Shown here piece by piece: positions 21,979-64,000 of a stretch of 64,000 bases of DNA (positions within the stretch are counted from its first letter, which is position 1; the number at the start of each line of letters is the position of its first letter). The DNA is taken from positions 11,829-75,828 of IMG/VR virus record IMGVR_UViG_3300017763_004709. One strand, written 5' to 3'. The DNA is from a virus. Under the pieces are notes generated by a model. It had not been told where the DNA came from. It saw nothing but the letters and a program-made list of their open reading frames with translations, and made no database searches. The translations under genes and the position numbers were made by a program.

Positions 21979-22262
21979 TAAGATTCTCCTTCATCTTCAA
22001 ATAATTCTAGTTGTTTACTTTTAATCTTACTTAAATAAGTTTTGGTAAGTATATCTCCCGCCTTGTCTAGAAGGTGAGCAGCCATATCTACAAATTCGGG
22101 TCTTAAAGCTAATCCCTTTTTAGTAGGGAACCAGTTACCCGTATCTCCGTCTCTCATATACTCTCTTATATGAATATACTCTTGACCTCTAAATTCGTTT
22201 ATAGTTATTTTTATAGCTTTATCTTCTGTTATATAACCTACAAAACCTAAATCAATTTCCAT
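21978..22262 (-). CDS. PC4/p15-like ssDNA-binding protein
   Basis: INEFRGQEYIHIREY...W.PTKKGLAL. Confidence 0.88.
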   Translation of the reverse strand: MEIDLGFVGYITEDKAIKITINEFRGQEYIHIREYMRDGDTGNWFPTKKGLALRPEFVDMAAHLLDKAGDILTKTYLSKIKSKQLELFEDEGES

Positions 22263-23385
22263 GAACTCTTTTTATCCTTGGATAATCATGTATCTTTTTA
22301 AGAGCATGATTATACATAATTCCTGCTTCTTCCCAGTTTTTTATTTTACTACTTTTAGGAATAGCACGTTTCTTCGTATCGTATAACATTTTCATTTTAG
22401 ATATCAAGTCTTGAACTTCTGGTTCTACTAACCAAGTATGAGAGCCCATTAAGTTAAAGCTATCTCCTGGTTTCCCTGCAAAAATATTATTAATGTCTAC
22501 GATTTTTTGAGAAGACTTTATTTTATAATCTGTAACAAATTCATCAGTACAGCCTCCTCCAGTAACTAAAGGAATAGTCCCACAAGCTATTGCTTCTTGA
22601 ACAGGCATTCCAAAACCCTCTCCTCTATAAGGATGAACTAGTACGTCCACACTTCTATATAAATCTGCCATATCTTTTTCTGAATAAGGATCATCTATAT
22701 AAGTTATTTTAGCTAAGCTATTAGTGTACTGTAGTTTAATTAATTGTTCTTGTAAGGCTGTTTTTCCATAAACTTGAGGGGTGTCTTTTACTATAAGCTC
22801 TACATTATCTTCTTTTTTAAATGTATTAGCCCATGCTTGTAGTAATATATCAAAACCTTTTCTATATTGATCACATCCTACAAATAAGAAAGTATATTTA
22901 TCTCTTTTAGGAGTATCTCTGTCTACATAAAAGATACTTGGATCATATCCTATAGGTATACAAAAAAGCCTTTCTGGGTTAATACCGCCTTCTTGATATA
23001 CTGCACCTGTCCAGCGAGTAAAAGTAATAAGAGCATCTGCAAAAGTTTCAAATTTGTATTGCCACTCAAAAGGCACTTTTGTAAACTCCCAAGGCTGTAT
23101 ATATACTACTTTTGTATCATTAGAATGAGGCCATCTCCATATAGGAGGATAACTATGCCTTATTTGTATATCAGGAACTACAGCAGTCTCCTCTTTAGGA
23201 AGTAAATTTTCTAAGTTTTGTAATGTTTCTTGGCTAAGTTTAGCCTCTGAAGTAAAACTATCTATAGGAGAAATAACTACATTGTTATACTTAGATAATT
23301 CAATAGCTAAGTACCTATTTACAATAGACAAAGAGTGGTTATCATAAAATTTACCTATAATTTCTAAATTCATATTATTTTGCAT
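22252..23385 (-). CDS. GT-B glycosyltransferase (GT4-like)
   Basis: FLFVG...RKG.D, PYRGEGFGMPVQEAIACG. Confidence 0.9.
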   Translation of the reverse strand: MQNNMNLEIIGKFYDNHSLSIVNRYLAIELSKYNNVVISPIDSFTSEAKLSQETLQNLENLLPKEETAVVPDIQIRHSYPPIWRWPHSNDTKVVYIQPWEFTKVPFEWQYKFETFADALITFTRWTGAVYQEGGINPERLFCIPIGYDPSIFYVDRDTPKRDKYTFLFVGCDQYRKGFDILLQAWANTFKKEDNVELIVKDTPQVYGKTALQEQLIKLQYTNSLAKITYIDDPYSEKDMADLYRSVDVLVHPYRGEGFGMPVQEAIACGTIPLVTGGGCTDEFVTDYKIKSSQKIVDINNIFAGKPGDSFNLMGSHTWLVEPEVQDLISKMKMLYDTKKRAIPKSSKIKNWEEAGIMYNHALKKIHDYPRIKRVHGN

Positions 23386-24202
23386 ACATAATCACCGCTT
23401 GTTCTTTACAATAGTTTAGTAGGTCTTTTTCTTTAATTTTTAATAGAGACTCCCATTGAGGGCCCATATTGCTAGTTTTAAAGTTTTTTAACTGTGTGTA
23501 GTTGTTAATATCTACTTTAGCTTGTATATCATAAAACGGGTCTTGTTTACTCTCAATACTGTGTCCAAAGTTATTAATTTTTAAATCTAATTCATTTTCT
23601 GGTCTACAGAAGCTCCAATGTAATATAGCCAAAGGAGATTGAATTCTCTTTTGATTATTAGTCCATCTACAATAATTAAATGTATTATGTTTTAAAGTAG
23701 TAAAACCTTGAACTTCATTATTAGGAATACTCTTTCTATCCTCTTTTGATATCACTAGTATTTCACCGTCTCCAACTCTTTTATAAGGCAAAACCCAATA
23801 AAACATTAAGTCTACATCATAATTCTCTACTATAGGACAAAACTTATTAAAAAAGTCATCTGCATTTATTAGTATTTCATCAGCATCAAAAGAAAAAATC
23901 CAATCGTTAGAACATTGCTCTTTTAAAAAGTTTCTTTCATAGTTATCATTTTCAATAGGTACAGCGCTTCTATGAAAGTTTCCTTCTACTACTTCTATTT
24001 TATTATCGCCATCAATACTACTTAGCTCTTTCCATAACTTATCTTCATCAAAAGAAAACTTATTACCGCTCCAAGATATTCTATCTTTATCTAATCCTAA
24101 TATTATTTCATCTACATAGTTATAATAACTTTTTATAGAACTTACTAAATAACTAGCATCGTAAGATATTAGACTGATTACACTTTTTTTACGCATTTTC
24201 AA
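23375..24202 (-). CDS. GT-A glycosyltransferase (GT2-like)
   Basis: VDEII, ERN, DWIFSFDADE. Confidence 0.8.
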   Translation of the reverse strand: MKMRKKSVISLISYDASYLVSSIKSYYNYVDEIILGLDKDRISWSGNKFSFDEDKLWKELSSIDGDNKIEVVEGNFHRSAVPIENDNYERNFLKEQCSNDWIFSFDADEILINADDFFNKFCPIVENYDVDLMFYWVLPYKRVGDGEILVISKEDRKSIPNNEVQGFTTLKHNTFNYCRWTNNQKRIQSPLAILHWSFCRPENELDLKINNFGHSIESKQDPFYDIQAKVDINNYTQLKNFKTSNMGPQWESLLKIKEKDLLNYCKEQAVIMYAK

Positions 24203-24959
24203 CTACTCTGTCTACTGTTTCAAATTCTTTTTTGCCTATCCATTTATCCATGAATATTGATCTATTTATAGACCATTTTTCTTGAAGATTCGGATTTTGA
24301 GCTAATAGTCTTTTGTTATCTTTTCCTTCAAAATGAAGTAACGGAATACCCGTTTGATAAATTTTATGGCCAGCGCGGCGGGCAGAAAGACACCAATCCA
24401 CATCACGATAGTAAGTCCAATAGAACTCAGGATCAAAATTACCAACGGAATTCCTAACAGAAGCTTTGAGGTAAACTCCGCCCATAGTAACCCAGGCAAC
24501 TTCTCTGACTTTGTCGTATTGGCCCTCATCGATTTCCAATTCTTGATTTGCTTTTCCATCATAGAGGTTAAGTCCTCCTCCGAAATGTACTGCTTCACCA
24601 TTTTTACTAAATCTCCCACCAGCGTGCTGAATTATATATTTATTTTCCTCAGTTTTTTGAGGATATAAAAGTTTCATTCCAAATATATCAGCTTCTGGAT
24701 ATTTAACTACAGTATTTATTAATTCTGTATACCATTTATTTTCTGTATCCTCTTGAAGAGGCAACATATCTGCATGTAATATAATTACATCTCTATGCTT
24801 ATGTTTATTCCATAGATACTGATAAGCCATATCACTGCCTATCTGACCTGTATCTTGCCAAAACTCATATTCAAGCTTCCATCCAAGGGCGGCTTTTAAT
24901 TGTTGTATCTCTTGTTCAAATAAATAAGGAACTATAATAATAGGATTAGGAGTTGTCAT
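24189..24959 (-). CDS. GT2 glycosyltransferase
   Basis: G.KLLYP..IQHAG, VG.FD..F..YY.DVDWC..A...G. Confidence 0.85.
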   Translation of the reverse strand: MTTPNPIIIVPYLFEQEIQQLKAALGWKLEYEFWQDTGQIGSDMAYQYLWNKHKHRDVIILHADMLPLQEDTENKWYTELINTVVKYPEADIFGMKLLYPQKTEENKYIIQHAGGRFSKNGEAVHFGGGLNLYDGKANQELEIDEGQYDKVREVAWVTMGGVYLKASVRNSVGNFDPEFYWTYYRDVDWCLSARRAGHKIYQTGIPLLHFEGKDNKRLLAQNPNLQEKWSINRSIFMDKWIGKKEFETVDRVVENA

Positions 24960-25935
24960 TATAAATATCTAACCAATTTTTAAATTCGTCTAATACGCTC
25001 TCAGCGCTATGAGTTTTAGTACAAGCAAAACTAGTACTAGTATGGGGGCAATGTCTGGGCCAAAAAGTAAAGTTAGCTGTGGGATTGCCAGGCTCTGTGT
25101 TAGTATCGGCATCTTTACTTAGTTTAGGAACTACACACTTAAAATCTCCACAATGATTATTAGTAGACGGTTTTATAGTTTTATGATATCCATCAGAATA
25201 AAACTCAGGACTATCGTACTCTGTAGGAAACACACTAGGAATACTAATAGTATTTACGTCCATAGCTGCCGAAGCATGCACTAAAGATCCTAAAGGAGAT
25301 ATAAATAAGTTTTGACGCTTTAATATCTGTAAAGATTGATATAAATTAAAATTTCCACACTCTATGCCTAAAAAAGATAGCTCATGTTCTATATTTTTAT
25401 TAGTCAGTATCTCTCTTATGCCTTGTATTATATCTAATCTCATTGTTTCTGACTGTAATTTTCTATTCCAGTCTAAAGGGCCTGACATACCTATTCTTAA
25501 TATTTTATCATCAGGCTTAACAGAGTCTATGTTTAGTATGGTGTTACCGTCTAAAAACTGATCTTCGGTAATGTATTCTTTTATAGGTAAATTAGCACTC
25601 TTAGAAATTCCTAAATCTGAAAACCACCGCCAGTGTAAAAACATTTTATCTACTTTTTTAAACTGATCTTCGCTTTTATTTAAGTTTACGTTTTTTACTT
25701 GACCTCTATTATCAAATTCTATTAATCCTATAGAATCTAACCAAGGCTGTTTACTAATAACTTCTAAAACTTCTGATATACCACTAGGTTGTTCATGAGT
25801 AGTAAGCATAAAATTACTTCTTAAACAATAACTTACTAAATGATCAGGGTTATTTTCTTTATATCTTCTAGCAGCATTTATGCCTAGAATTACGTCTCCG
25901 AATGCTTGTGTGTTTGCAAATAGTACATGAGTCAT
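24946..25935 (-). CDS. GT9/heptosyltransferase-like protein with C-terminal four-Cys cluster
   Basis: AFGDVIL N-terminus, FIS..GS.VHASAAMDV, C....C...CP.....FACT. Confidence 0.6.
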   Translation of the reverse strand: MTHVLFANTQAFGDVILGINAARRYKENNPDHLVSYCLRSNFMLTTHEQPSGISEVLEVISKQPWLDSIGLIEFDNRGQVKNVNLNKSEDQFKKVDKMFLHWRWFSDLGISKSANLPIKEYITEDQFLDGNTILNIDSVKPDDKILRIGMSGPLDWNRKLQSETMRLDIIQGIREILTNKNIEHELSFLGIECGNFNLYQSLQILKRQNLFISPLGSLVHASAAMDVNTISIPSVFPTEYDSPEFYSDGYHKTIKPSTNNHCGDFKCVVPKLSKDADTNTEPGNPTANFTFWPRHCPHTSTSFACTKTHSAESVLDEFKNWLDIYNDNS

Positions 25936-26963
25936 TTATTAAATAGCCTATCTGTCCATGTTTTAGGTGTTTTATCATTTATTATTTCTAAATCTATATG
26001 ATAATCAAAGTCTCTAGTAGTTTGGTCTCTCATCCACACCACAGTATCTCTTATAGTTTCTTCAATATCTGTGTCTGCTTTATAGTTTAGTACGTCCTCT
26101 GCCTTATCAGTAGATACCCAAGCATTTTTTACTTCTCTAGGTCTTTCAGGAACAAAGTTTATTTCTGCAGTTTTGTTAAAATATTTAGCTACTTTATTTG
26201 CTAGTGCTGCTATAGAAGTTTCGGTTCCATGGCTAGGACCTATATTAAATACTTCTTTGCTTTCTATTTTATCTCTTTTATTATAAACTGTTACAAAAGC
26301 TTCTACACAATCTTTTACATGAGAAAAAGATCTTTTTTGTGTTCCGTCACCATAAATATATACAGGTTTATCTTTAGATATTAGATTTGCAAAAATACTC
26401 ATAACGTTTCTAAAAGGATCACTATAGCACTGATGAGGGCCGCACACATTATGAGGAACCATATGAAATACTTTTATTCCATGAATGTCACTCATTAAAT
26501 TTAAATGCTGCTCTGCGTGTAATTTAGCTAAGCCATAAGGATCTACAGGATTAGGAGTATGATCTTCTTGAAAAGGAGGATTTCCTTCGCCATATCTTGC
26601 CATAGAAGTGGTATTTATAAACATAGGTACATTATTACTTACAGAAGCACTACACACAGAAGCTGTTCCTGCATATATGTTCTCAACTATTTTTTTAGGA
26701 GAAAAAACACTTAATCCTTCGTGGGCTAAAGCAGCACAGTGTATTACAAGCACAGGAGAGTAAATACCCATTACATTAGACAGCTCTTTAGTATCTAGTA
26801 TGTCTTGCTCATAATAAAAAAAGTTTTTATTATCAGGCATGTTGGTTATATAGCCACCTATTAAAGAGTCTATACCTATTACTCTGTACCCTAACTCTAA
26901 ATACTTATAACATAGATGACTACCTATTAATCCTGCAGATCCTGTAATTACAACTGATTCCAT
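25932..26963 (-). CDS. NAD-dependent nucleotide-sugar epimerase/dehydratase
   Basis: TGSAGLIG, YGLAK, GDGTQKRSF.HV.D. Confidence 0.93.
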   Translation of the reverse strand: MESVVITGSAGLIGSHLCYKYLELGYRVIGIDSLIGGYITNMPDNKNFFYYEQDILDTKELSNVMGIYSPVLVIHCAALAHEGLSVFSPKKIVENIYAGTASVCSASVSNNVPMFINTTSMARYGEGNPPFQEDHTPNPVDPYGLAKLHAEQHLNLMSDIHGIKVFHMVPHNVCGPHQCYSDPFRNVMSIFANLISKDKPVYIYGDGTQKRSFSHVKDCVEAFVTVYNKRDKIESKEVFNIGPSHGTETSIAALANKVAKYFNKTAEINFVPERPREVKNAWVSTDKAEDVLNYKADTDIEETIRDTVVWMRDQTTRDFDYHIDLEIINDKTPKTWTDRLFNK

Positions 26964-27721
26964 ACGTCATTCCAATCTACTAAGGGGGTTACACAATTAT
27001 CTTGTAGGTGTGTAGCAGTTCCAGGTAAAGGACAAACAGCTACATTCTGTCTAAAAGCTTTCCAGGTCCAAGAGTCGTCTGAAAACAAACCTGCTTGAAG
27101 TATAGAAAACTTAAAAGGTAAGAATGTTTTTCCTTTTGCGGCTAAAGTTAAAGTAGCACTGCTAACTGTTTTTAAGTGACAGTCAGGTCCTACTAATACT
27201 TCTACTGTTCTGTCTTTATCAAAATACCTATCTGGATAGTCATAAGGCAAATAAAAACCTTCATACCCTGCTTTAAAAACATTTTTCATAGTTTTTATGG
27301 CAGTTTTAGTATGAAGGTAATCGTCTTCGCATAAATATATTAGCTCTTCAGTATTTGCTTCTGCTATTTCTATTAAATTTTCCATTAACGGAATACAAGT
27401 ATTTATTGTAACAGGATGATACTGAGGATAAGGATGCTCCCCAAATGGGGGTACTTCAGTTCTGTTAGGTATATCTTTTATTTCTAATTTAGTAGGTATA
27501 GAGCAGGTTTCTCGCATCCAAGATTTAGTTTCTTCAGTAACTGTATCTGCTAATACTATAATCTTATCGTCCCAGCCTTCTAAATCTTGTTGTAAAGAAA
27601 GCCAACATTTTCTAAAGATTTCATCTTTCTTTTTTCCATTCCATCTAGCTTTATCTTGTGAGCCGTCTGATATACTTCCTGGAGACTTATTAGCTTCTGA
27701 AGCTCTATATATTATTATCAT
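26948..27721 (-). CDS. putative GT-A glycosyltransferase
   Basis: IYLCEDDYLH, YDYPDRY, C.P.PG.ATH; within glycan operon. Confidence 0.65.
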   Translation of the reverse strand: MIIIYRASEANKSPGSISDGSQDKARWNGKKKDEIFRKCWLSLQQDLEGWDDKIIVLADTVTEETKSWMRETCSIPTKLEIKDIPNRTEVPPFGEHPYPQYHPVTINTCIPLMENLIEIAEANTEELIYLCEDDYLHTKTAIKTMKNVFKAGYEGFYLPYDYPDRYFDKDRTVEVLVGPDCHLKTVSSATLTLAAKGKTFLPFKFSILQAGLFSDDSWTWKAFRQNVAVCPLPGTATHLQDNCVTPLVDWNDVWNQL

Positions 27722-28314
27722 TTTGTTACTTTTTTTCTTGAGAAATTTCTATATTCATCAATAATACTTATAATATAAGGATCTAAAGGTTCTATACCTT
27801 CTCTTACAAATTTTTCTATTTCGTCTTTTTGATTATTATTAAAGTTACTTTTATAAATAGAAGAACGATATACTCCTCTTGTTTTAGAAGGATTACCAAA
27901 CACTTTAGAGAAAGGTTTTACATCTTTTATTATGGGCGAAAATGTTCCTATAAAAGAATGACTACCTACTGTAGAGTAATTTTGTATATGAGCATTATAC
28001 TCTATATAAACATTATTTTGAATAACACTATGAAAACCTAAGTAACAACAACCTGTTATAGTATTATTATTGCCTATCAAAGTATCACTATTAATAGTAG
28101 TACTTGGGCCTATATAATTGCCACTTCCTATAACAGTATTCTCTCTGTAACCAGTTGCGCAGTTAATAACACATGCTGAAAGTATGGTATTGTTTTTACC
28201 TAGAGATATTCCATATTTATCATCTTTTACTAAAAACACCACTGAAGGGTCAATAGTATTAGAAGAATCTATAGAAAATTCTATAATAGCTTTGGAGGCA
28301 GAGTATACTTTCAT
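27718..28314 (-). CDS. hexapeptide-repeat (LpxA-like) acyltransferase
   Basis: IG.N hexapeptide repeats; KDV.PF..V.GNP. Confidence 0.75.
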   Translation of the reverse strand: MKVYSASKAIIEFSIDSSNTIDPSVVFLVKDDKYGISLGKNNTILSACVINCATGYRENTVIGSGNYIGPSTTINSDTLIGNNNTITGCCYLGFHSVIQNNVYIEYNAHIQNYSTVGSHSFIGTFSPIIKDVKPFSKVFGNPSKTRGVYRSSIYKSNFNNNQKDEIEKFVREGIEPLDPYIISIIDEYRNFSRKKVTK

Positions 28315-28336
28315 AGTGCTATTCAAAATAATGAGT

Positions 28337-28595
28337 GTCACTTTTTCTGTTGCTAGGCAAGTGACCAGCCCCCTTAATCATGCAGCTAGTGCGTAATTAG
28401 ATGGTGCAAAGTTATCGTTTGCGTTTGTAGTTTTTGGCTGAATATCGTAGGCCAACACGGTAATCTACTCTCATCTCTACACACCTGTCGATCCTAGTTC
28501 AGCCCCATAAGAAACACACTTATCTTAATGTGTTTATGGTGGAGCTGTCGGGTACTGCCCCCGAGTCCAGTATGTATGTTGAATTGTATCAACGA
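28337..28595 (-). ncRNA. ssrA: tmRNA, circularly permuted two-piece (alphaproteobacterial type); tag ANDNFAPSNYALAA
   Basis: Acceptor piece ...GGACTCGGGGGCAGTACCCGACAGCTCCACCA (ends 28537) precedes a 30-nt spacer and the coding piece GGGGCTGAA..GGATCGAC (starts 28506); tag ORF 28422-28378; PK1 and terminal pseudoknot pair; outer ends approximate. Confidence 0.95.
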
Positions 28596-35029: not shown

Positions 35030-35435
35030 AGAGTATTTAATATCAGAGGCATTTAATAATGTTTTTTGTACCTTAGCACCTTCACCAATACATGGTGTAG
35101 GTGTTTTTGCGCTAAAAGACATACCCAAAAATATAATTGTATTTTCTTCTATATCATGGGATACCTTAGACAACTCTATTCTAAAAAAGCTAGATGAAAG
35201 TGTACTACTTGAGTATGCTAAAAAATTTAAAACATCTTATGAAGGATTAAAGATCCCTGCTAGAGGGTATAATTCAATTGACTTTAGATTTTACTTAAAC
35301 CACGCTACTTCTTGTAATCTTAATTATGATTCAGAGAATGATTTAATCATAAGTAAAGATACTATTTATAAAAATACTGAATTAACAATAAACTATAAAG
35401 CTTACGGACTTAGCATTGATAACAGTTTTCACTAA
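35022..35435 (+). CDS. SET-domain protein (putative lysine methyltransferase)
   Basis: SPIHGVGVFA..DI, FYLNHA..CN, ELTINY. Confidence 0.85.
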   Translation: MPKEYLISEAFNNVFCTLAPSPIHGVGVFALKDIPKNIIVFSSISWDTLDNSILKKLDESVLLEYAKKFKTSYEGLKIPARGYNSIDFRFYLNHATSCNLNYDSENDLIISKDTIYKNTELTINYKAYGLSIDNSFH

Positions 35436-35814
35436 CGGATGTTATGATATCTTACATCCTGGACATATAGATTTGTTTAACTATGCCTCTACATTAGGTG
35501 ATAGACTAATAGTATGTCTAGACAGTGACGATAGGGTAAGAAGAAATAAAGGTTTTTGTAGACCTATAAACACTTTAGGTATTAGATCTAAAATTATAGG
35601 AGCTTTAAAACCTGTAACGTCGGTAATATCTTTTGATTCTGATGATGATTTATGTTCTATATTTGATACTTATAACGCTGACTTATTAGTCATTGGAGAA
35701 GAATATAAATACAAAAATATTGTAGGCGAAGATTTTGTAAAGAAAGTTATATTTTATGAACGAGACAATAGATACTCAACAACTAACATCATTAAGAGTA
35801 TTAATAATAGGTGA
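35416..35814 (+). CDS. heptose-1-phosphate adenylyltransferase-like (HldE/RfaE domain II)
   Basis: VFTNGCYDILHPGH, DSD..VR..KG..RPIN, STT.II. Confidence 0.85.
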   Translation: MITVFTNGCYDILHPGHIDLFNYASTLGDRLIVCLDSDDRVRRNKGFCRPINTLGIRSKIIGALKPVTSVISFDSDDDLCSIFDTYNADLLVIGEEYKYKNIVGEDFVKKVIFYERDNRYSTTNIIKSINNR

Positions 35815-36550
35815 GTCATGTCTGGATGAGTACAGGCTAGGTTCTGTAACTAGAATATCTCCAGAGGCTCCTGTACCTGTTATACAGTTTAAAGAGTTAA
35901 ATACTGTAGAAGGTATGGCTGCTAATGTTAAAAATAATGTTCAAGCTTTTAATGTAGGTAACATAGATTTAATAACTAATAGATCTAAAATTATTAAAAG
36001 AAGATTTATAGATATAAAATCTAATCAACAATTACTACGAGAAGACATAGGCGACTCTGTATCCTCGTTAATAGACTATAATATAAAAGTAATGAGTTCT
36101 AATGATTATGATGTAGTCATAATTTCTGACTACTGTAAAGGGCTATTAACACCTGATACGGCCAAACTAGTATGTGAAAAATTTAAACATAAGGTGTATG
36201 TAGACACTAAAAAAGAAGACTTAAGTTGTTTTCCATATTCTATTATAAAAATAAATGAATATGAGGATAATAGTAGTTATAACTTACCTCTATCTTCTAC
36301 TAAAATAGTAACTTTAGGGTCTAAAGGTTCGGTATGCGAAGGTGTATTCTCTAGGCCTTCTCCTGTAAAAGTTCATGATGTTACGGGGGCTGGAGACGTA
36401 TTTTTATCTTCTCTTGCAGTATTAAATAGTTTTAACTCTATTCATGACTCTATAGACTTAGCAAATAAACTTGCGTCTTATTCAGTAGAACACTTTGGAA
36501 CATATGTTATAAATCAACTAGATATAGAAAGGGCTTTTAATGAGACTTGA
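35756..36550 (+). CDS. heptose-7-phosphate kinase-like (HldE/RfaE domain I, PfkB fold)
   Basis: RISPEAPVPV, ISDYCKG, DVTGAGD. Confidence 0.88.
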   Translation: MNETIDTQQLTSLRVLIIGESCLDEYRLGSVTRISPEAPVPVIQFKELNTVEGMAANVKNNVQAFNVGNIDLITNRSKIIKRRFIDIKSNQQLLREDIGDSVSSLIDYNIKVMSSNDYDVVIISDYCKGLLTPDTAKLVCEKFKHKVYVDTKKEDLSCFPYSIIKINEYEDNSSYNLPLSSTKIVTLGSKGSVCEGVFSRPSPVKVHDVTGAGDVFLSSLAVLNSFNSIHDSIDLANKLASYSVEHFGTYVINQLDIERAFNET

Positions 36551-36893
36551 AGGTTTTGTAAAAAAAGGATGGGGTCACGAACTTATTTGGGCAACAAATG
36601 ATAAATATTGTGGCAAACTGATGAAGTTTAATGAAGGTGCTAAGTTTTCTATGCATTTTCATAAAGATAAAGAAGAGACTTGGTATGTATTAGGCGGCGA
36701 GTTTATAGTTCATTGGATTAATACTTTTGATGCCTCTAAGATAAGTACAAAAATTAAAGAGGGAGATACTTGGCATAATGAACCTTGTAGCCCTCATCAA
36801 TTAGAATGTTTAAAAGAGGGTACTATATTAGAAGTTAGTACTCCAGACAGCGTAGAAGATAATTATAGAGTGTCTCCTGGGGATTCTCAATGA
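36540..36893 (+). CDS. cupin (sugar isomerase-like)
   Basis: V.KGWG.E, SMHFH..K.ETW, PH, EVSTP...DNYRV.PGD. Confidence 0.8.
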   Translation: MRLEGFVKKGWGHELIWATNDKYCGKLMKFNEGAKFSMHFHKDKEETWYVLGGEFIVHWINTFDASKISTKIKEGDTWHNEPCSPHQLECLKEGTILEVSTPDSVEDNYRVSPGDSQ

Positions 36894-38983: not shown

Positions 38984-39793
38984 ATGTCTAGCATAGTACT
39001 GGTTACTGGAGGTTTTGACCCTCTTCATTCTGGCCATATAGCTTACTTTAAAGAAGCTAAAAGGTTAGGACAAAAATTAGTGGTCGGACTAAATAGTGAT
39101 GATTGGCTAACAAGAAAAAAAGGTAGACCCTTTATGAGCTGGTCTGAAAGAGCTGAGATACTTGAAAATATAAGCTGTATTGACAGAGTTATTAAATTTA
39201 ATGACTTAGACGATACTGCTAATGACGCTATATATAAAACTTTAAAAATGTCTCCTGATAGTAGAATAATTTTTGCTAATGGAGGAGATAGATCTATAGG
39301 TAATACTCCTGAAGAAAAAACTTATGGAGGAGTACCTTGGGTTAGGTTTGAATGGGGAATAGGAGGAGAGAATAAAGTAAATAGTTCTTCTTGGATTCTA
39401 GACAAATGGAAAACTCAAAAAACAGAAAGAGATTGGGGGTACTGGAGAGTTTTAGATGATAAACAACCAGCATTACCTCAAAAGATAAAAGAGCTAGTTA
39501 TTTATCCTAATTGTAGCTTATCTGATCAAAAACATTTAGATCGCTCAGAACATTGGTATGTATTAGAGGGAGATTTACAAATAGAACTAGAATATCCAGA
39601 TGCTACTTGGAAAACAATGATTCTTAGCCCTCATACTACTTTTGTTATACCTACTAATACTTGGCATAAAACTACCAATATTGGTAGTTTTAACGCTCAT
39701 GTTCTTGAAGTACAATACGGAACTAAATGTATTGAGTCAGACATTGAGCGAAGGCAGATACTTAATGAAAAGAATAAACGAGACGACATATAA
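38984..39793 (+). CDS. nucleotidyltransferase fused to mannose-6-phosphate isomerase-type cupin
   Basis: TGGFDPLHSGH, FANGGDR, K.NSSS; R.WG, LS.Q.H..RSEHW, H, EVQYG. Confidence 0.88.
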   Translation: MSSIVLVTGGFDPLHSGHIAYFKEAKRLGQKLVVGLNSDDWLTRKKGRPFMSWSERAEILENISCIDRVIKFNDLDDTANDAIYKTLKMSPDSRIIFANGGDRSIGNTPEEKTYGGVPWVRFEWGIGGENKVNSSSWILDKWKTQKTERDWGYWRVLDDKQPALPQKIKELVIYPNCSLSDQKHLDRSEHWYVLEGDLQIELEYPDATWKTMILSPHTTFVIPTNTWHKTTNIGSFNAHVLEVQYGTKCIESDIERRQILNEKNKRDDI

Positions 39794-46073: not shown

Positions 46074-46580
46074 ATGAAAATAATAAATTTTGAAAATAAA
46101 CAGTATCCTGCTTTTCAAGCTACTGGAAATGCAGCTAGATTTGCTATTCCTTTTGCTAAAGAGCTTATAGGATTAGACAAAGTAGGTTATGATATAGGGT
46201 GTATGAAAAAAGAATGGTCTTATCCAGGGTCTATAAATATAGACATAGATATAGACGACCCTTGGGACGCCTATAATTTACCTGATTTAGAAGTAGATTA
46301 TATATTTTCTTCTCACTGCTTAGAGCACTTGCCTGATTGGGTAGGAGCTTTAGACTATTGGAATTCTAAACTAAAAATAGGAGGAATTTTATTTTTGTAT
46401 CTACCTCATAAGAGTCAGAAATACTGGAATCCTTGGAACAATAGAAAACATTATCACATGTTTTCTTCTTCACAGTTTAATAAATATTTTAAAAGTAAAA
46501 GTAAAAACTGGACTAATACATTTGTAACAAAAGGTCATGATTTAAATAACAGCTTCTACTGTGTAGCAAAAAAATACTGA
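46074..46580 (+). CDS. class I SAM-dependent methyltransferase
   Basis: DIGC, DYIFSSHCLEH, LK.GG.LFLYLP. Confidence 0.88.
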   Translation: MKIINFENKQYPAFQATGNAARFAIPFAKELIGLDKVGYDIGCMKKEWSYPGSINIDIDIDDPWDAYNLPDLEVDYIFSSHCLEHLPDWVGALDYWNSKLKIGGILFLYLPHKSQKYWNPWNNRKHYHMFSSSQFNKYFKSKSKNWTNTFVTKGHDLNNSFYCVAKKY

Positions 46581-46949: not shown

Positions 46950-47282
46950 ATGCTAGCTAATATTACTAATCTAAACACAGAATATTCTGATTGCACTATT
47001 TTAATAGATCCAAGCGATTCTTGGACTACAGATAAGACTATATCTGTTCTATTGTCAAGACTTTTAGCTAACTACTCAGAGTATTGCGAAGAATATCCTA
47101 GCGATTTTTCTTCTTTAGAAGAGTGGAAAATGGAAGTTAACTATCATTCAGATTGTTTAAGTGAGTATTTTTATTGTCAAGAATCAGATAATGCTGAGTT
47201 TGAAGCAATTCTTAAAGACACTAAAAAGTCTTTTAAATTTATCTCTGAATATTTAGAAGATTTATGGATAGTTAACGAATGA
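46950..47282 (+). CDS. hypothetical protein
   Basis: ORF with GAGG SD. Confidence 0.6.
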   Translation: MLANITNLNTEYSDCTILIDPSDSWTTDKTISVLLSRLLANYSEYCEEYPSDFSSLEEWKMEVNYHSDCLSEYFYCQESDNAEFEAILKDTKKSFKFISEYLEDLWIVNE

Positions 47283-47995
47283 CTGCTATAATATTTGATG
47301 TAGACGGTACTCTTACAGACCCTAGAGAAAAAATAGATCCTTTCTTTTTACAAGAACTTGTAGGATTATCTATGTCTTATAGTATTTATTTAGCTACAGG
47401 AAGCGACTACGTTAAAACAGAAGAACAACTAGATACGTGGTTTTTAGAGAACATAATTTCCTATAGTTTTAATTGCTCAGGAAACTCTGTATGGCAAAAA
47501 GGACAAGAAGTATATAGAGAAGACTGGATTACTCCTACCGAAGTATTAGATTGGCTTAACAGTGAACTAACTGAAAGTACTTTTGAACACAAGACAGGGT
47601 TTCATTTTGACAAAAGACCTGGTATGCTAAACTTTAGTATAGTTGGAAGAAATGCTACACCTCTACAAAGAGTATTATATTCTGAGTTTGACAAAAACAC
47701 TAAAGAAAGGTTAAACTTATCTATAAAGTTTAATAATGCTTTTAAAGATAAATATAATATTACAGCACAGATTGCCGGAAGAACTGGTTTTGACATATAT
47801 AGAGACGGTAAGGATAAGAGTCAAATATTAGATTACTTTGAAAATATTCCTATATTATTTTTTGGCGATGACACTCAAGAGGGCGGTAATGATCATACGT
47901 TAGCTAAAGCTATCGAAGAAAGAAACAATAAAGAAGATAAAGTATTTAAAGTATCTTCTCCTTCTGAAACAAGATATTTAGTTTCTCTTCTTTAA
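47279..47995 (+). CDS. HAD-IIB phosphomannomutase (PMM/Sec53-type)
   Basis: FDVDGTLT.PR, TGSD, R.GMLNFS.VGR, FFGD...GGND. Confidence 0.85.
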   Translation: MTAIIFDVDGTLTDPREKIDPFFLQELVGLSMSYSIYLATGSDYVKTEEQLDTWFLENIISYSFNCSGNSVWQKGQEVYREDWITPTEVLDWLNSELTESTFEHKTGFHFDKRPGMLNFSIVGRNATPLQRVLYSEFDKNTKERLNLSIKFNNAFKDKYNITAQIAGRTGFDIYRDGKDKSQILDYFENIPILFFGDDTQEGGNDHTLAKAIEERNNKEDKVFKVSSPSETRYLVSLL

Positions 47996-58188: not shown

Positions 58189-61100
58189 ATGGCCGTTAAC
58201 TTTCCAGACTCTCCAGCAAATGGAGACTCATTTAGTGTAAATGATACTACTTATGTATATAACGCTACTGCGGGTTACTGGGATATAACATCTACAGTAC
58301 AGGCTTCTGCAAGCACCAGTACTAATGCCCCTTCTAATCCTTCTTCTGGAGATTTATGGTTTGACCCTTCTAGTCTCACTACTTATATTTACTATTCTGA
58401 CGGTACCAGCTCTCAGTGGGTTCCCGCAAATTCTGTAGGAGCAAGAGGCGCACCTGGACCAGGGTACCCTACTGCTTATTATTCAGTAGACTACACTAGT
58501 ACCGCTACAGGAAATGTAGTTTTTAATTCTAGTAGTTCTCCTACCCTACCTTCTTATACTGTAGGTAAGGTTAACGCATGGGTCAATGGAGTACTAAGAT
58601 CAGACATAGATGCAAGTGACGGTTCTAATGTAGAAATATCTTTATCTACAGGTGATGAGGTTCAAATAATTAATTTTGGGGATACTGATATATTAGACCC
58701 TACCGCCTCTTCTAATGACCACACTACATATACTACTTTATCTAGTTTAATAGATACTGTACAAGCAAATGTTACCTCAGCTGGATCAGGTGTAGCGGTT
58801 TATGCTACACCTGATCTTTTGCCATTATCAGGTACTGATGCGGGAGACCAAGCATATGTCAATTCTACCAATAGGCTTTATATTAACAATGGTGCTGGCT
58901 GGTATAGCATCGGTCTTGTAAATAGTAGTCCAAGTATTACAAGCGTATTAGATGAAGATTCTAATGCTACACCCTTTACCTTATCAACTGACGGATCAGC
59001 TAGTGTTATAACAATTACTGCAACCGATCCAGAAGATGTACCATTAACTTATACCTATTCTGTTACTGGTGGTTCACTAACTAATGGTGGGGGTACAACT
59101 GCAACCATTGTACAAGGCACAGGATCTAATACTAACAAGTTTACCGTTACGCCCTCTACTATCGAAGCGTATGCTGGTACATTCAGTCTAACATTTACAG
59201 CTTCAGATGGAATTAATACTGCAACGAGCGCTAATAGCTTTACATTACAGTTTATTACTATAGTTTCTAATAGTAAGTATACAACTTTGTTAGCTACCGC
59301 AACTGGTACTTCCGATAATAACAATATTACAGACGCTTCTACTAATAACCATTCAATCACTGTAAACGGTGATGCCTACGCTGGTACGTTTAGCCCTTAT
59401 AGAAGTGGGGGTTATTCAACATCTTTTGATGGTACTGGTAACACTTGGTTTAAATTTCCTACCAGTACAGACTTTAATCTTACAGACCAATCTTTTCATA
59501 TTGGTTTCTGGTGCTATCCTAAAGTATTAGGAGATTATGATACAATAATTGCACAGATTGGAACAATGGGAATAGAACTTCTAAGTGGTTCTATGAGAAT
59601 GTGGCTAGGAACAGGCACGAACGGCACTTGGAATTTACTTAATGCTGCCCAGATTTCAAATACTTTAAATGTAAATGAATGGGCATATATTACTGTAGTT
59701 AGAGATACAGACAACAATACATTAAAGTCATATCATAACGGCACTTTAGTATATAACAATACAAGTTTTACTGGCACCGTAGGTGATAGTACTAACTCAA
59801 TGGATATTGGAAAATATAACAATAGTAATATCAATTCTTGGAACGGATATATTAGAGACCTTAGATATAGAGTTGGCACTGGTTCTGAAGATACTTCAAA
59901 CGCTGTACCAACAGAAGCAGTTACATCAGAAGATTCTTTAACAAAACTTCTTACGTGTCATTCACCAATCATTAGTGATGGTTCATCTAGTGCGAGAACA
60001 CCCGAAGGCAAGATGATTAGTGGAAGTATGACTGCTGGTTGGAAAGTTACAGAACCCTTCTCACCCTACGATTACACTGAATACTCAGCAACAGATCACG
60101 GGGGGTCAGTACATTATGATGGGTCAAACGATGATATTACAATTACAGATCATAGTGCTTTTGATTTAAGCACTGTAAATTGGACTGTTGAGTTTTGGTG
60201 GAACCCTAAAAGTGTAAACACAAATGAAGGCCCAATGAGTGTGGGCTATGGATCTGGTAGCACTCCAACAGGTTTAAAGTTTTCATGGGAAAACAATAAG
60301 CTGTACGCATTTTCTATGGACGGCTCAACTCTGCAGACGGGCCTTTACCACGATGCTACTGCTGCTAGTTTGATTAATAGATGGAACCACGTTGCAGCGG
60401 TTTATAATGGGACAAATACGGATTTATATCTAAACGGTGTTGCTTCAGGCCGTGCGCAATCAACTAACTTTGGTGAAAATAGCTCTGACGATGTGAGAAT
60501 TGGCTCTGTACGCCGTTTAAGCTCTATACATTATTCAGAATGCTCAATAAGTGATGTCAGAATTGTAAAAGGCACCGCTGTTTACTCTGGTAACTTCACT
60601 CCACCAACAGGCCCACTAACGACTACTGGTGGAACATATCCAAGCACTACTAATGTAAACACCAGCATCACGGCAAGTAATACTTCACTGCTTATCAAAG
60701 GTACAGACGCCTCAATTATAGATAAATCTCAAGTAAATAATTTAAAACTGATTGGGGGCCCTGCAGGTTCAACTACTCAGGCTAAGTTTAGTAATACTAA
60801 GTCAATAGACTTTGGAGATGGAAGTTTATCATATGTAATGGAGGTGCCATCAGGAGCAGGTTACACAGGCGAGTTTACGATAGAATTTTGGATGTATAAC
60901 ACATTCGTTACAAGCACATGGCAATCATTAATATCTAATAGCTATGTAAATGGTAGTGAGTATTTTAGATTTTATAAGAATAATGGGAGTGGAACATTTG
61001 CTTTATATCATAATTCAACTAGTGCTAAATTAACAGGTATTGGTAATATAACTAATAATACGTGGACTCATGTTGCAATTGTGAGAGATTCTTCTAATGA

Positions 61101-61314
61101 TATAACAGTTTATCAAGACGGTACTAGTATTGGTAGTTATAATAATAACCAAATATTTGGTACAGCTTCTAATCCTATCAATGTTGGAAAAGGTGGGGTA
61201 GGAGATACTACAAACTATCCTATGAGTGGATATATCCAAGATTTAAGAATCACTGATGGTTTAGCTCGCTACACCGCAAACTTTACACCGCCAACAGCAC
61301 CATTAGAAGGTTAA
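58189..61314 (+). CDS. virion fibre/adhesin with Ig-like domain and three LamG (ConA-like) domains
   Basis: MAVNFPDSP N-terminus, GDLWFD, repeated F.IEFW / W.H.A.VR / GYI.DLR; Ser/Thr-rich. Confidence 0.85.
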   Translation: MAVNFPDSPANGDSFSVNDTTYVYNATAGYWDITSTVQASASTSTNAPSNPSSGDLWFDPSSLTTYIYYSDGTSSQWVPANSVGARGAPGPGYPTAYYSVDYTSTATGNVVFNSSSSPTLPSYTVGKVNAWVNGVLRSDIDASDGSNVEISLSTGDEVQIINFGDTDILDPTASSNDHTTYTTLSSLIDTVQANVTSAGSGVAVYATPDLLPLSGTDAGDQAYVNSTNRLYINNGAGWYSIGLVNSSPSITSVLDEDSNATPFTLSTDGSASVITITATDPEDVPLTYTYSVTGGSLTNGGGTTATIVQGTGSNTNKFTVTPSTIEAYAGTFSLTFTASDGINTATSANSFTLQFITIVSNSKYTTLLATATGTSDNNNITDASTNNHSITVNGDAYAGTFSPYRSGGYSTSFDGTGNTWFKFPTSTDFNLTDQSFHIGFWCYPKVLGDYDTIIAQIGTMGIELLSGSMRMWLGTGTNGTWNLLNAAQISNTLNVNEWAYITVVRDTDNNTLKSYHNGTLVYNNTSFTGTVGDSTNSMDIGKYNNSNINSWNGYIRDLRYRVGTGSEDTSNAVPTEAVTSEDSLTKLLTCHSPIISDGSSSARTPEGKMISGSMTAGWKVTEPFSPYDYTEYSATDHGGSVHYDGSNDDITITDHSAFDLSTVNWTVEFWWNPKSVNTNEGPMSVGYGSGSTPTGLKFSWENNKLYAFSMDGSTLQTGLYHDATAASLINRWNHVAAVYNGTNTDLYLNGVASGRAQSTNFGENSSDDVRIGSVRRLSSIHYSECSISDVRIVKGTAVYSGNFTPPTGPLTTTGGTYPSTTNVNTSITASNTSLLIKGTDASIIDKSQVNNLKLIGGPAGSTTQAKFSNTKSIDFGDGSLSYVMEVPSGAGYTGEFTIEFWMYNTFVTSTWQSLISNSYVNGSEYFRFYKNNGSGTFALYHNSTSAKLTGIGNITNNTWTHVAIVRDSSNDITVYQDGTSIGSYNNNQIFGTASNPINVGKGGVGDTTNYPMSGYIQDLRITDGLARYTANFTPPTAPLEG

Positions 61315-61332: not shown

Positions 61333-64000
61333 ATGGCAATAAACTTTCCAGATAGTCCTACAAACGGGCAGCAAACTTCTGCAGGAGGAAACACCTGGCA
61401 GTATAATAGTGCTAAATCAGTTTGGGAAAAGACTTTAACTAGTGGTAGATCTAGCTTAGGTATCGCTACTTATGCAAATATTTCAGATTTACCTCTTAGT
61501 GGGGTATCTGCAGGTAAACAAGCCTTTGTTACGGGATCAAATAGACTTTATATTAGTAACGGCACTGGATGGTATTCTATTGGATTAGTAAATACTAACC
61601 CTGCTATTACTTCAGTTCAAGATTCTGCAGCAGGAACAACTCCGTTTACTTTAACGACAGATGGCACCGCAACTGTAATTACTATAACTGCTGCAGACCC
61701 AGAAGGATTCCCATTAACTTATAACTATTCTGTTACTAGTGGTTCACTAACTAATGGTGGTGGTACAACCGCAACTGTTGGCCAAGGTACTGGTGAGGGT
61801 TATGCTATAGCAAGCGCTTCTCTGCTAAGCGGAACTCATACTGTTAATGCGAATGTAGGAGCGCTTACATTTAAACCAGATGGTACTGAAATGTATTATG
61901 TGGGTACTCATAATGATCGTGTTAATAGGCATACTTTAAGTACTGCTTGGGATGTAAGTACAGCAAGTTTTGTAGGATCTAGTCCAAACACTCTTAGTCA
62001 GGTTAGTCAATTAACTGATGCTAAGTTTAATAATGACGGCACTAAAATGTATATGGCTGATAAATCTACCAACACTATATATCAATATAGTTTAAGCACT
62101 GCTTGGAATATTGGTACGGCAAGTTACGATAATAAATCATACGATTTTTCTACTCAATTAACCAGCGATGAATTAAATTGTTTTGTATTTAATAACGATG
62201 GTTCTGCCGTGTATCTAGCAGAGCTTGGGACTAGCAGAGATATTTTTCAATATACTCTAAGTACTCCTTTTGATATAAGCACCGCATCTTATGCTAGTAA
62301 AAGTCTTAGTCTGGCCTCTGTAGCTTCAAATGGTTATATTGGAAGACAGTATTTTCAATTCACTAATGATGGCAGTAAATTATTCTTAATTCATACGTTT
62401 CATCCAGCTGGGTTTGTAGGAAAAATTTATGAATATAGTTTAACAACAGCATACGATATAAGCACTGCATCTCATACCAGCGTTACTTATACACCTACTG
62501 GTATAACTACAGGTCGTTCTGCTATAGCATTTAAACCTGATGGCTCAAAAATGTTTATAATGGGTACGGATAATCATACTACCATTTCTCAATTTAACTT
62601 GCCTGTTTATAATGCTAATCAATTTACAATAACTCCAACAACTACAGAAGCGCATGCTGGTACGTTTGAACTAACTTTTACTACTAGTGACGGTATCAAC
62701 ACAGCTACAAGTGCTAATAGCTTTACATTAAATTTTATTACTATAGTTACTAATAGTAAATATACTACCTTATTAGCGACAGCAACTGGTACGTCAGACA
62801 ATAATAATATTACTGATACATCTTCAAACAATCATACTATTACTGTAAATGGCCCTGCCCACGCTGGTACGTTTAGCCCTTATCGGAGTGGTGGGTATTC
62901 TACTTATTTTGACGGCAACGATTATTTAACAACTACACAAACTACCCCATTAGGAACGGCAGATTTTACTATTGAAGGTTGGATAAATTTTGATAATGTT
63001 GGTGGAAATAGAACCTTTATGACTTTAGATAGCACGACACAACTATATTTTAGAAATAACGGATCATCTATTGCGATATATAAAAACAGCAGCGCATATA
63101 ACTTTTCTACTGGAACACCAGAGGTTAATACTTGGTATCACTTTGCTTTTGTAAGACAGTCAGGATCTGTAACTTTATATTGGAATGGTCAGTCTAAAGG
63201 TTCTACTAGTCACGCGCATGATTATACTATTGGAAATCTACACATAGGATGCTGGTCGGCAATAAGTGAATTTTTTCAAGGACATCTTACGGATATAAAG
63301 ATATCAAATACAGCAGCATATACATCTAATTTTTCTGTGCCAACTGAAAGATTATCTTCTGATTCATCAACTAAACTGCTTATTTGTCACCTACCGTACA
63401 TTGCTGATGGTTCTAATCTTAATGAGACAATCGCAGTAAACGGCGACCCCACTACAAAACCATTATCACCCTACGACAATTTAGAATACTCAGCAACTGA
63501 TCACGGTGGGTCTGTGTATTTTGGAGGCGGTACAAGAGAGCATTTATCAACATCATTGCCTGCATTTGGTACTCAAGATTTTGAAGTAGAATTTTGGATT
63601 TATGGAGGAGCATTAACTTCTAGCACTTGGTATACCTTGTTTAGTAGAGACTATAATGTAAATGGAAGTTTTAGAATATATTGTGCTGCTGGTTCGGATG
63701 TGGATAAATTTATATACATAGCTAATGGGACAGCATATAATTATACTTCAGCTGGAAAAATAAGAGATAATGTTTGGAATCATATATTACTTTCCAGAGT
63801 CTCTGGTACAGCAAAATGGTTTATAAACGGTATTGAAGATACTTCTTGGTCTGATTCACAAAATATGACTAGTACTGCTACCCTATATATAGGAGACACT
63901 GGAGCAGATGAGACTTCTAATTCGTCATATCCATTTGTAGGTTATATGTCAGATATTGCAATTAGAATGGGCGGTAGTGGGTATAGAACATCTAGCTTCA
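61333..64000 (+). CDS. paralogous fibre/adhesin with inserted beta-propeller and LamG domains (runs off the window; absent from ORF track)
   Basis: MAINFPDSP start; no stop seen in frame; shares long blocks with 58189-61314. Confidence 0.85.
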   Translation, partial: MAINFPDSPTNGQQTSAGGNTWQYNSAKSVWEKTLTSGRSSLGIATYANISDLPLSGVSAGKQAFVTGSNRLYISNGTGWYSIGLVNTNPAITSVQDSAAGTTPFTLTTDGTATVITITAADPEGFPLTYNYSVTSGSLTNGGGTTATVGQGTGEGYAIASASLLSGTHTVNANVGALTFKPDGTEMYYVGTHNDRVNRHTLSTAWDVSTASFVGSSPNTLSQVSQLTDAKFNNDGTKMYMADKSTNTIYQYSLSTAWNIGTASYDNKSYDFSTQLTSDELNCFVFNNDGSAVYLAELGTSRDIFQYTLSTPFDISTASYASKSLSLASVASNGYIGRQYFQFTNDGSKLFLIHTFHPAGFVGKIYEYSLTTAYDISTASHTSVTYTPTGITTGRSAIAFKPDGSKMFIMGTDNHTTISQFNLPVYNANQFTITPTTTEAHAGTFELTFTTSDGINTATSANSFTLNFITIVTNSKYTTLLATATGTSDNNNITDTSSNNHTITVNGPAHAGTFSPYRSGGYSTYFDGNDYLTTTQTTPLGTADFTIEGWINFDNVGGNRTFMTLDSTTQLYFRNNGSSIAIYKNSSAYNFSTGTPEVNTWYHFAFVRQSGSVTLYWNGQSKGSTSHAHDYTIGNLHIGCWSAISEFFQGHLTDIKISNTAAYTSNFSVPTERLSSDSSTKLLICHLPYIADGSNLNETIAVNGDPTTKPLSPYDNLEYSATDHGGSVYFGGGTREHLSTSLPAFGTQDFEVEFWIYGGALTSSTWYTLFSRDYNVNGSFRIYCAAGSDVDKFIYIANGTAYNYTSAGKIRDNVWNHILLSRVSGTAKWFINGIEDTSWSDSQNMTSTATLYIGDTGADETSNSSYPFVGYMSDIAIRMGGSGYRTSSF
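61795..62607 (+). repeat. five protein-level repeats (F..DG..[MVL][YF] ... LST.[WFY]D.STAS)
   Basis: FKPDGTEMY, FNNDGTKMY, FNNDGSAVY, FTNDGSKLF, FKPDGSKMF. Confidence 0.8.

Follow-up and report, generated by a model that had tools for sequence, protein, structure and literature searches.

A phage-encoded GT9-fold glycosyltransferase with a four-cysteine finger: a possible minimal TibC/Aah-type heptosyltransferase

Which sugar does a glycosyltransferase encoded by a marine phage transfer, and onto what? The question is raised by positions 24946-25935 (minus strand) of a 64,000-nucleotide stretch of the IMG/VR virus record IMGVR_UViG_3300017763_004709 (record positions 11,829 to 75,828; this whole stretch is the window referred to below). 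An original prediction, made from the letters of the DNA, had placed here a TibC/Aah-like protein heptosyltransferase with a Cys-rich ending, served by a phage-borne supply of ADP-heptose. The gene is an open reading frame (ORF) of 329 aa, whose product we call P0001. Its C-terminal third reads NNHCGDFKCVV...FWPRHCPHTSTSFACTKTHSAESV and its tail HCGDFKCVV...RHCPHTSTSFACTK...SV, in agreement with the C-x4-C ending first described. The source record is 75.8 kb long (CheckV completeness 67%). From its replication genes (PolA, DnaB, primase, NAD ligase, SbcCD, ribonucleotide reductase and ThyX) and lambda/T5-like tail-tip genes, the window virus, which has ~32% GC, is a large marine siphophage-like virus. 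The explanation that we put forward, tentatively and as a possibility short of probable, is that P0001 is a minimal TibC/Aah-type protein O-heptosyltransferase standing outside the BAHT family, that of TibC and Aah, and acts on a soluble acceptor, for which Ser/Thr residues of the phage's own virion proteins are the likeliest candidates.

The fold of P0001 is the firmest element of this proposal. The AlphaFold2 model (mean predicted local distance difference test, pLDDT, 93) has two GT-B lobes which, in structure comparison, are closest to solved enzymes of glycosyltransferase family 9 (GT9). Foldseek ranks TibC first, and VIA-align places TibC, an uncharacterised GT9 protein (3tov), WaaF and WaaC all within ~3 Z units. 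P0001 alone has no match in Pfam (even at E<=10, PF01075 included), NCBIfam (E<=0.01) or PHROGs, and phmmer against PDB sequences returned chance matches only. The profile of its family reaches GT9 weakly (3tov, E 0.0017; WaaF, E 0.28), and three of 23 family members match PF01075 (best 2.7e-6). The label "GT9-like" is thus clear from the fold and is aided by the family profile and these three relatives. On the strength of the model we regard the GT9 fold as almost certain, and P0001 as a predicted GT-B glycosyltransferase, soluble and inverting, of the heptosyltransferase (GT9) type.

The active site can be traced through residues invariant in all 56 family members (G13, D14, S113, K159, Y246 and H251). 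In hhalign comparisons the N-terminal GD segment pairs with the start of WaaC and of WaaF, and D155-x3-K159 with T226-x3-K230 of TibC. In the latter enzyme D110 is the catalytic base, T226 and K230 hold the beta-phosphate, R286 contacts adenine and W305 contacts O4 of the heptose (PMC4358343). By the same alignments, TibC R286, P300 and W305 correspond in P0001 to S201 (a variable position), L215 and H220, respectively. L215 also occupies the position of WaaC D261, where the D-(S/T)-G motif would have its Asp; this position varies across the family, and H220 is kept in 52 of the 56 members. With R286, P300 and W305 replaced and the D-S-G Asp absent, the donor pocket matches neither that of BAHT nor that of WaaC/WaaF exactly.

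Close to the C-terminus, an insertion of ~45 residues before the last helix carries four cysteines (C262, C267, C296 and C305). In 54 of 56 members all four are kept; the other two have lost every one of them, together with part of the insertion. Such all-or-none loss is far from chance and fits a structural, tetrahedral metal site; judged from this conservation, the four cysteines very probably form a structural metal finger. From the signature His to the C-terminus P0001 has ~109 residues, compared with ~101 after W305 in TibC and ~56 in WaaC. The iron ligands of TibC are C339, C342, C358 and C370, and its finger is required for dimerisation and for recognition of the substrate TibA. Over the C-lobe plus finger, hhalign aligns the P0001 family with TibC (E 1.7e-3) and with an alignment of 19 BAHT members (probability 41%, E 2.8e-4); the alignments with WaaC and WaaF end before the finger. 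The motifs that pair are PEFY/SEFY, HCGxYxC/HGCYGC, FWPRHCP/LWCPRH and CP...FACT/CP...FECT, with the second knuckle reading CPHTSTSFACT in P0001 and CPRHKNTDRQFECT in TibC/Aah. A profile-profile comparison of the finger alone scores 17.9, where column shuffles reach 15.4 at the 95th percentile and 20.8 at most. Taken together, the alignments suggest that the finger is probably homologous, or at least equivalent, to that of BAHT. The TibC/Aah-like finger of the original prediction stands as regards the four conserved Cys, the shared topological site and the common CP...F-x-C-T motif, while similarity within the finger alone is weak (p ~0.01-0.05).

How widespread is this enzyme? The P0001 gene occurs on four other IMG/VR contigs at 95-100% identity, and a second phage clade (clade 2) has, at the same operon position, a glycosyltransferase with 36-37% identity. 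This recurrence and the high pLDDT of the model identify 24946-25935 as a real gene. When 1.84 billion representatives were searched exhaustively with HMMER, only 28 clusters matched; word-seeded searches of 5.8 billion proteins found ~34, every one of them labelled "hypothetical" and derived from a metagenomic or viral contig, those of Tara Oceans included. No homologue was detected in 50,697 GenBank phage records (megablast, tblastn), nor any relative in ~185,000 bacterial and archaeal species genomes (GTDB). A profile search of the 5.8 billion proteins returned the phage family only, with no BAHT link and no new or intermediate relatives, and related-locus searches of IMG/VR with the proteins P0037, P0016, P0010, P0024 and P0021 gave no matches. 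By these searches the Cys4 GT9 is a small family seen in phages only. Its structural neighbours in BFVD are proteins of uncultured phages labelled "RfaF" and "Aah/TibC", and the nearest clusters in the ESM Atlas are viral GT9 clusters. Within the family, a distant branch (P0024, P0027 and P0028) has strongly basic N-lobes (+4 to +13; isoelectric point, pI, 8.3-9.0), unlike the acidic majority, and may use a different acceptor, possibly one that is anionic or membrane-bound. Clade 2 also has, among its replication genes, an ORF of 544-565 aa (G003:C1:49966-51642; also G004 and G007) with a weak match to model positions 175-229 of PF01075, the counterpart of which is missing in the window.

The next question is the donor. 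Two separate but overlapping genes of the window have domains II and I of rfaE as their best-scoring families. Hallmark motifs of HldE are RISPEAPVPV and TGAGD in the kinase and HxGH in the transferase; the two HldE domains noted originally are both found here with intact HPGH, RISPEAPVPV and TGAGD, though with scores below cut-off (table 1). GmhA (SIS_2) and GmhB, which the original prediction had not seen in the window, have no match in the whole 75.8-kb record or in five related records. Just downstream of the HldA-like kinase lies a metal-binding cupin that always accompanies it, in clade 2 as well; this cupin is probably a candidate sugar-phosphate isomerase replacing GmhA. Likewise, the eukaryote-type phosphomannomutase (PMM) of the window is probably either a true PMM or a candidate stand-in for the GmhB phosphatase. 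A related phage offers a parallel: its locus L106:234-3110 (G008:C1:13793-16669; twin in G009) encodes a methyltransferase, a plain GT9 (309 aa), a 107-aa protein of the haloacid dehalogenase (HAD) type with a DxDGT start, an RpiB/LacAB-like::HldC fusion and then an HldA-like kinase, and looks like a complete ADP-heptose pathway with neither GmhA nor GmhB. With a non-canonical isomerase and phosphatase in L106, it would be credible that the cupin and PMM-type HAD fill these two roles in the window phage.

Gene co-occurrence also bears on the donor. HldA and HldC-like genes are present in all six Cys4 GT9 records first examined (G000-G005). In a set of 21 related phage records collected through their DNA polymerase, HldA was found in 4 of the 6 with the Cys4 glycosyltransferase and in 2 of the 15 without it, these two carrying another GT9 beside HAD, RpiB::HldC and HldA. 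Both the glycosyltransferase and HldA are lacking in 13 of the 21, including a 173.5-kb record rated 100% complete. A one-sided Fisher test, calculated by hand on records that are related and fragmentary, gives p ~0.03, and lends modest support to the ADP-heptose link. Since the two exceptions have their own GT9 beside the pathway genes, a GT9 with a non-canonical ADP-heptose pathway appears to be a recurring cassette in this phage group. In clade 2, the HldA-like matches (G003:C1:56943-57818, G004:C1:26949-27842 and G007:C1:19351-20241) each contain one in-frame TAG, with an open frame of 291-303 aa; the match may overrun the end of the gene.

In an alternative scenario P0001 would have the GT9 fold but use another donor, either the product of the cytidylyltransferase-cupin and PMM genes or a UDP-sugar from the adjacent 4-epimerase, with HldA and HldC serving another transferase or some other purpose. 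The sugar contacts of TibC and WaaC are not conserved (R286 to S201, P300/D261 to L215, W305 to H220), and the neighbouring short-chain dehydrogenase/reductase (SDR) resembles UDP-hexose 4-epimerases, unlike HldD. The HldA and HldC genes lie 10 kb away on the opposite strand, two records (G006 and G014) have the glycosyltransferase and no detectable HldA, and the phage encodes three nucleotidyltransferases and a PMM. Nevertheless, ADP-heptose is the donor of nearly all characterised GT9 enzymes, HldA and HldC occur in this phage group only in records with some GT9-type gene, and P0001 is the only GT9-fold gene of the window able to use a heptose pathway. We thus consider a different donor improbable and, from the gene content, hold that the donor of P0001 would on balance be ADP-heptose.

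The window has other sugar genes as well. The cytidylyltransferase-cupin fusion and the PMM point to a second nucleotide-sugar route, of the mannose type, in which the nucleotidyltransferase fold is unusual, and the window further contains two methyltransferases, a fragment resembling UDP-glucose dehydrogenase and a third nucleotidyltransferase. The fragment (53132-53899, 255 aa), like UDP-glucose/GDP-mannose dehydrogenases, has the N-terminal and central domains and lacks the C-terminal one, perhaps because the gene is truncated or split. It comes after a MazG gene and before a Methyltransf_24 gene.

The GT9 gene is the fourth in a series of overlapping genes on the minus strand, from 28341 down to 22252 (table 1). 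Its start and the stop of the epimerase gene upstream share 4 bases (ATGA), and there is a further overlap between its own stop and the gene that comes after. From 22252 the series runs on into the replication block, with no convincing terminator before ~20750. The closest solved structures to the SDR are UDP-Glc and UDP-GlcA 4-epimerases, and we rejected it on that ground as an HldD heptose epimerase. For the 256-aa protein that follows the GT9 no PDB match was found, and no operon protein has a membrane-like segment. Between the two clades identity falls from the epimerase (70%) through the GT2-like protein (66%) and GT4 (50%) to the GT9 (36%) and the 257-aa protein (32%); the pronounced divergence of these last two genes, the most diverged of the operon, is compatible with a role in determining specificity. 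The clade-2 operon (L010-L012) lacks the hexapeptide acyltransferase and has in its place, beside the epimerase, a homologue of the window's S-adenosylmethionine (SAM) methyltransferase. Outside the window, the structural region of close relatives contains giant ORFs of 4420 aa (G001:C1:15057-28319) and 3899 aa (G003:C1:18493-30192).

Table 1. Features of the window relevant to the GT9-fold glycosyltransferase and to its possible donor and acceptor.
Feature	Position	Strand	Remarks
Hexapeptide left-handed beta-helix acyl/acetyltransferase, first gene of the operon	27718..28341	-	Hexapep 1.8e-11; LpxA-like 78 bits and NeuD-like 51 bits, both sub-cut-off
257-aa operon protein without family match	26948..27721	-	32% conserved in clade 2
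SDR nucleotide-sugar 4-epimerase-like enzyme	25932..26963	-	Pfam Epimerase 2.8e-47
GT9-fold glycosyltransferase with Cys4 finger (P0001)	24946..25935	-	Soluble, pI 5.7, 329 aa
Codon of Asp14 (G13-D14 motif), predicted catalytic base	25894..25896	-	Invariant in 56/56; counterpart of WaaC D13 and TibC D110
D155-W-N-R-K159 motif	25459..25473	-	K159 invariant, aligned to TibC K230; D155 aligned to T226
Cys4 finger insertion (C262, C267, C296, C305), predicted tetrahedral metal site	25021..25152	-	Between PEFY motif and C-terminal helix
256-aa protein, coding region overlapping the GT9 gene	24189..24959	-	Weak rhamnosyltransferase match, E 0.002; 57% conserved in clade 2
GT2-like protein	23375..24202	-	Glyco_tranf_2_4 weak, E 0.0014, sub-cut-off; 66% identical in clade 2
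GT4 glycosyltransferase, last gene of the operon	22252..23385	-	Pfam Glycos_transf_1 2.3e-17; phrog_2170
HldC-like heptose-1-phosphate adenylyltransferase (HldE domain II)	35416..35814	+	HPGH motif; TIGR02199 107 bits, cut-off 181.5
HldA-like heptose-7-phosphate kinase (HldE domain I), shortened, 264 aa	35756..36550	+	RISPEAPVPV and TGAGD; TIGR02198 122 bits in 3 stretches, cut-off 345
Metal-binding cupin	36540..36893	+	HxH...E motif; Cupin_2 3.9e-08; weak lyxose-isomerase match
Cytidylyltransferase-like domain fused to cupin of phosphomannose isomerase type	38984..39793	+	Pfam CTP_transf_like and MannoseP_isomer
SAM methyltransferase	46074..46580	+	Methyltransf_23; clade-2 homologue inside glycan operon, beside SDR gene
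Eukaryote-type PMM (HAD)	47279..47995	+	Pfam PMM 5.2e-24; PDB PMM2 8.6e-24
Ser/Thr-rich (26.7%) fibre or baseplate-like virion protein, candidate acceptor	58189..61314	+	Three ConA-like Laminin_G_3 domains
Second Ser/Thr-rich (26.5%) fibre-like protein	61333..63999	+	Ended by contig end

What, then, might be glycosylated? The two Ser/Thr-rich fibre proteins named in the original prediction are indeed rich in these residues, with ~26.5% Ser+Thr against a window median of 12.6%, and the HldC-like gene of clade 2 is directly adjacent to structural ORFs that are rich in Ser/Thr. A protein acceptor seems to us plausible, if less than probable, and a virion fibre in particular a more doubtful proposition. 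Sequence features suggest that the acceptor is probably neither lipid A nor DNA.

The lipid alternative deserves close attention. Here the operon would remodel the host envelope, acting on the core of lipopolysaccharide (LPS) or lipooligosaccharide, on the capsule or on a precursor of an S-layer glycan, with a block to superinfection or a changed surface as the outcome. H220 matches the D-S-G-x-x-H signature of the LPS enzymes of GT9; the operon is co-oriented and overlapping with early replication genes, with no terminator before ~20750; and its first gene scores best against LpxA. Moreover, marine-phage glycosyltransferase clusters of this kind are read in the literature as cell-surface modification genes, under the uncharacterised heading "cell wall modification" (PMC12801897). 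The N-lobe argues otherwise. Its net charge, a crude sequence proxy, is -3 in P0001 and between -3 and -11 for most family members, compared with +8 in WaaC and +5 in WaaF. In structure comparison, which the original prediction had proposed as a check, the result named there as refuting did not arise: the closest structure is not clearly a Kdo-lipid A heptosyltransferase, and the N-lobe of P0001 is acidic, unlike that of WaaC/WaaF. The D-S-G Asp is absent (Leu at the variable position 215), the BAHT-like finger has no counterpart in WaaC/WaaF, and the family is absent from the ~185,000 species genomes searched. Finally, no flippase, polymerase, ligase or initiating phosphoglycosyltransferase was found among the scanned ORFs. 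Weighing both sides, we regard an envelope target as somewhat unlikely.

A third possibility is hypermodification of DNA, whereby the operon would add heptose-containing glycans to a modified base in order to evade restriction. There is a precedent in the phage kinase, cytidylyltransferase and GT-B enzyme that make heptosylated 5-hydroxymethylcytosine (bioRxiv 10.1101/2023.12.21.572611). The operon does sit within the replication block, and in clade 2 the HldA-cupin pair is flanked by the genes for DnaB and primase. Nevertheless, the five carrier records, which are 44-73% complete, yielded ThyX only, with no ThyA-type hydroxymethylase, TET/JBP or C5-methyltransferase, for which reason we rank DNA glycosylation low. 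In addition, P0001 is acidic, with no sign of a basic DNA groove, and its fold fits GT9 rather than enzymes like the beta-glucosyltransferase of T4. This scenario is, in our view, highly improbable.

We therefore return to P0001 as a minimal TibC/Aah-type protein O-heptosyltransferase. Under this explanation the phage HldA-like kinase and HldC-like adenylyltransferase would make the ADP-heptose donor, with the cupin isomerase and the PMM-type HAD taking the place of GmhA and GmhB. P0001, together with the GT2-like and GT4 enzymes, epimerase, acyltransferase and methyltransferase, would assemble a short glycan on an acceptor that is soluble, the likeliest being Ser/Thr hydroxyls of the phage's own virion proteins, for example the Ser/Thr-rich ConA-like fibres. 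The Cys4 finger would have a docking or stabilising role like that of the TibC finger. The full version of this scheme, in which a marine siphophage puts heptose-based glycans on its own ConA-like fibres with a minimal, non-dodecameric TibC-like enzyme and a non-canonical ADP-heptose pathway, is unlikely as it stands.

Several observations weigh against the proposal. The features that define BAHT (barrel, thumb, R286 and W305) are all missing in P0001, VIA-align fails to separate TibC from 3tov, WaaF or WaaC, and the H220 position resembles that of LPS-type GT9 enzymes. When the finger alone is scored with a hidden Markov model (HMM) against sequence, composition-preserving shuffles reach the observed scores in 105 of 2000 and 28 of 2000 cases (1.4-5%), which is not significant, and a model of the isolated finger (residues 236-329, pLDDT 81) found no Foldseek or VIA-align match, TibC included. 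The HldA- and HldC-like scores lie below the curated NCBIfam cut-offs, and the fragmentary records G006 and G014, as mentioned, have the glycosyltransferase with no HldA detected. Translational coupling ties the glycan operon to the early replication block, and it does not lie among the virion genes. Furthermore, soluble GT9, GT4 and GT2 enzymes also build inner-leaflet LPS cores, so that the acceptor may be lipid-linked even with no membrane proteins in the operon. For the transferase as a whole, the original prediction of a TibC/Aah-like enzyme thus keeps the GT9 fold, the site of the finger, the first rank of TibC in Foldseek and the HldA/HldC-like genes, and loses the barrel, the thumb, R286/W305 and a match in NCBIfam.

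To our knowledge, the only known targets of protein O-heptosylation are bacterial autotransporter adhesins, and demonstrations of phage virion glycosylation are limited to mycobacteriophages and giant algal viruses. If the full scheme is true, virion heptosylation would have its first example, and the metal finger of BAHT would be a portable protein-substrate module predating the autotransporter systems. Being small, soluble and devoid of barrel and thumb, the Cys4 GT9 is a tractable enzyme for asking what the finger does and whether heptose occurs on marine phage fibres. Phages may also have rebuilt the ADP-heptose pathway with unrelated isomerases (a cupin, or an RpiB-like enzyme in the relative) and phosphatases, a case of non-orthologous replacement. 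Were the host envelope the target after all, the operon would bear on the "LPS gene" clusters that marine phages carry and that have long gone unexplained.

Among viruses, the capsid glycosyltransferases of chlorovirus PBCV-1 form a virus-encoded system of virion glycosylation. Another is the glycosylation of capsid and tail in mycobacteriophages (Freeman et al. 2023; PMC10527164). Like these phage and giant-virus systems, the window phage has soluble, virus-encoded glycosyltransferases, and it has its own sugar-nucleotide enzymes, a set that could decorate its structural proteins; the known systems differ in using other glycosyltransferase families and sugars, and their glycans have been directly observed. 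Compared with the GT9-like phage proteins in BFVD and the ESM Atlas, the Cys4 family escapes the GT9 HMM and is without a homologue in the GenBank phage records, and the plain GT9 of the L106 phages, unlike the P0001 family, has no Cys4 finger. GT9-like phage proteins were already known; what is new is a Cys4-fingered GT9 with neither barrel nor thumb that the GT9 HMM misses.

With WaaC, WaaF and the Veillonella GT9 (2H1H, 1PSW and 3TOV) P0001 shares an N-terminal "GD", a length of 320-350 aa and the lack of an extra N-terminal domain, and in its G-S-x-x-H-x-A-A signature the His falls at the "GLMHVAAAL" position of WaaF. It departs from WaaC/WaaF in its acidic N-lobe, the missing D-(S/T)-G Asp, the ~45-residue Cys4 insertion and its setting, a phage glycan operon in place of an LPS core cluster. 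With TibC/Aah (PDB 4RAP, 4RB4; PMC4358343) it has in common the GT9-type GT-B core, the catalytic Asp and the beta-phosphate Lys; a four-Cys insertion at the same place, with (S/P)EFY before it, CP...F-x-C-T within it and a helix after it; and solubility, without the basic N-lobe of WaaC/WaaF. The two differ in Cys spacing (C-x4-C-x28-C-x8-C in P0001, C-x2-C-x15-C-x11-C in TibC), identity is ~10-12%, R286, P300 and W305 are replaced, and P0001 is encoded by marine phages that have no autotransporter substrate. Nor does P0001 have the N-terminal flattened beta-barrel of TibC (PF21129, residues 1-97), which is present in all listed TibC homologues: there is no Pfam match, and residue 1 of the model aligns to TibC 96. 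The beta-hairpin thumb (TibC 257-279, including F265 and V266) stands opposite a gap in both hhalign alignments. As barrel and thumb build the TibC dodecamer, a dodecamer of that kind is unlikely for P0001; a homodimer prediction from two copies scored 0.01 and gave no answer either way. P0001 is thus not a BAHT member, yet it probably shares the most unusual feature of that family: structurally a GT9 enzyme, it belongs to neither the BAHT nor the WaaC/WaaF group and would work most like a minimal TibC/Aah.

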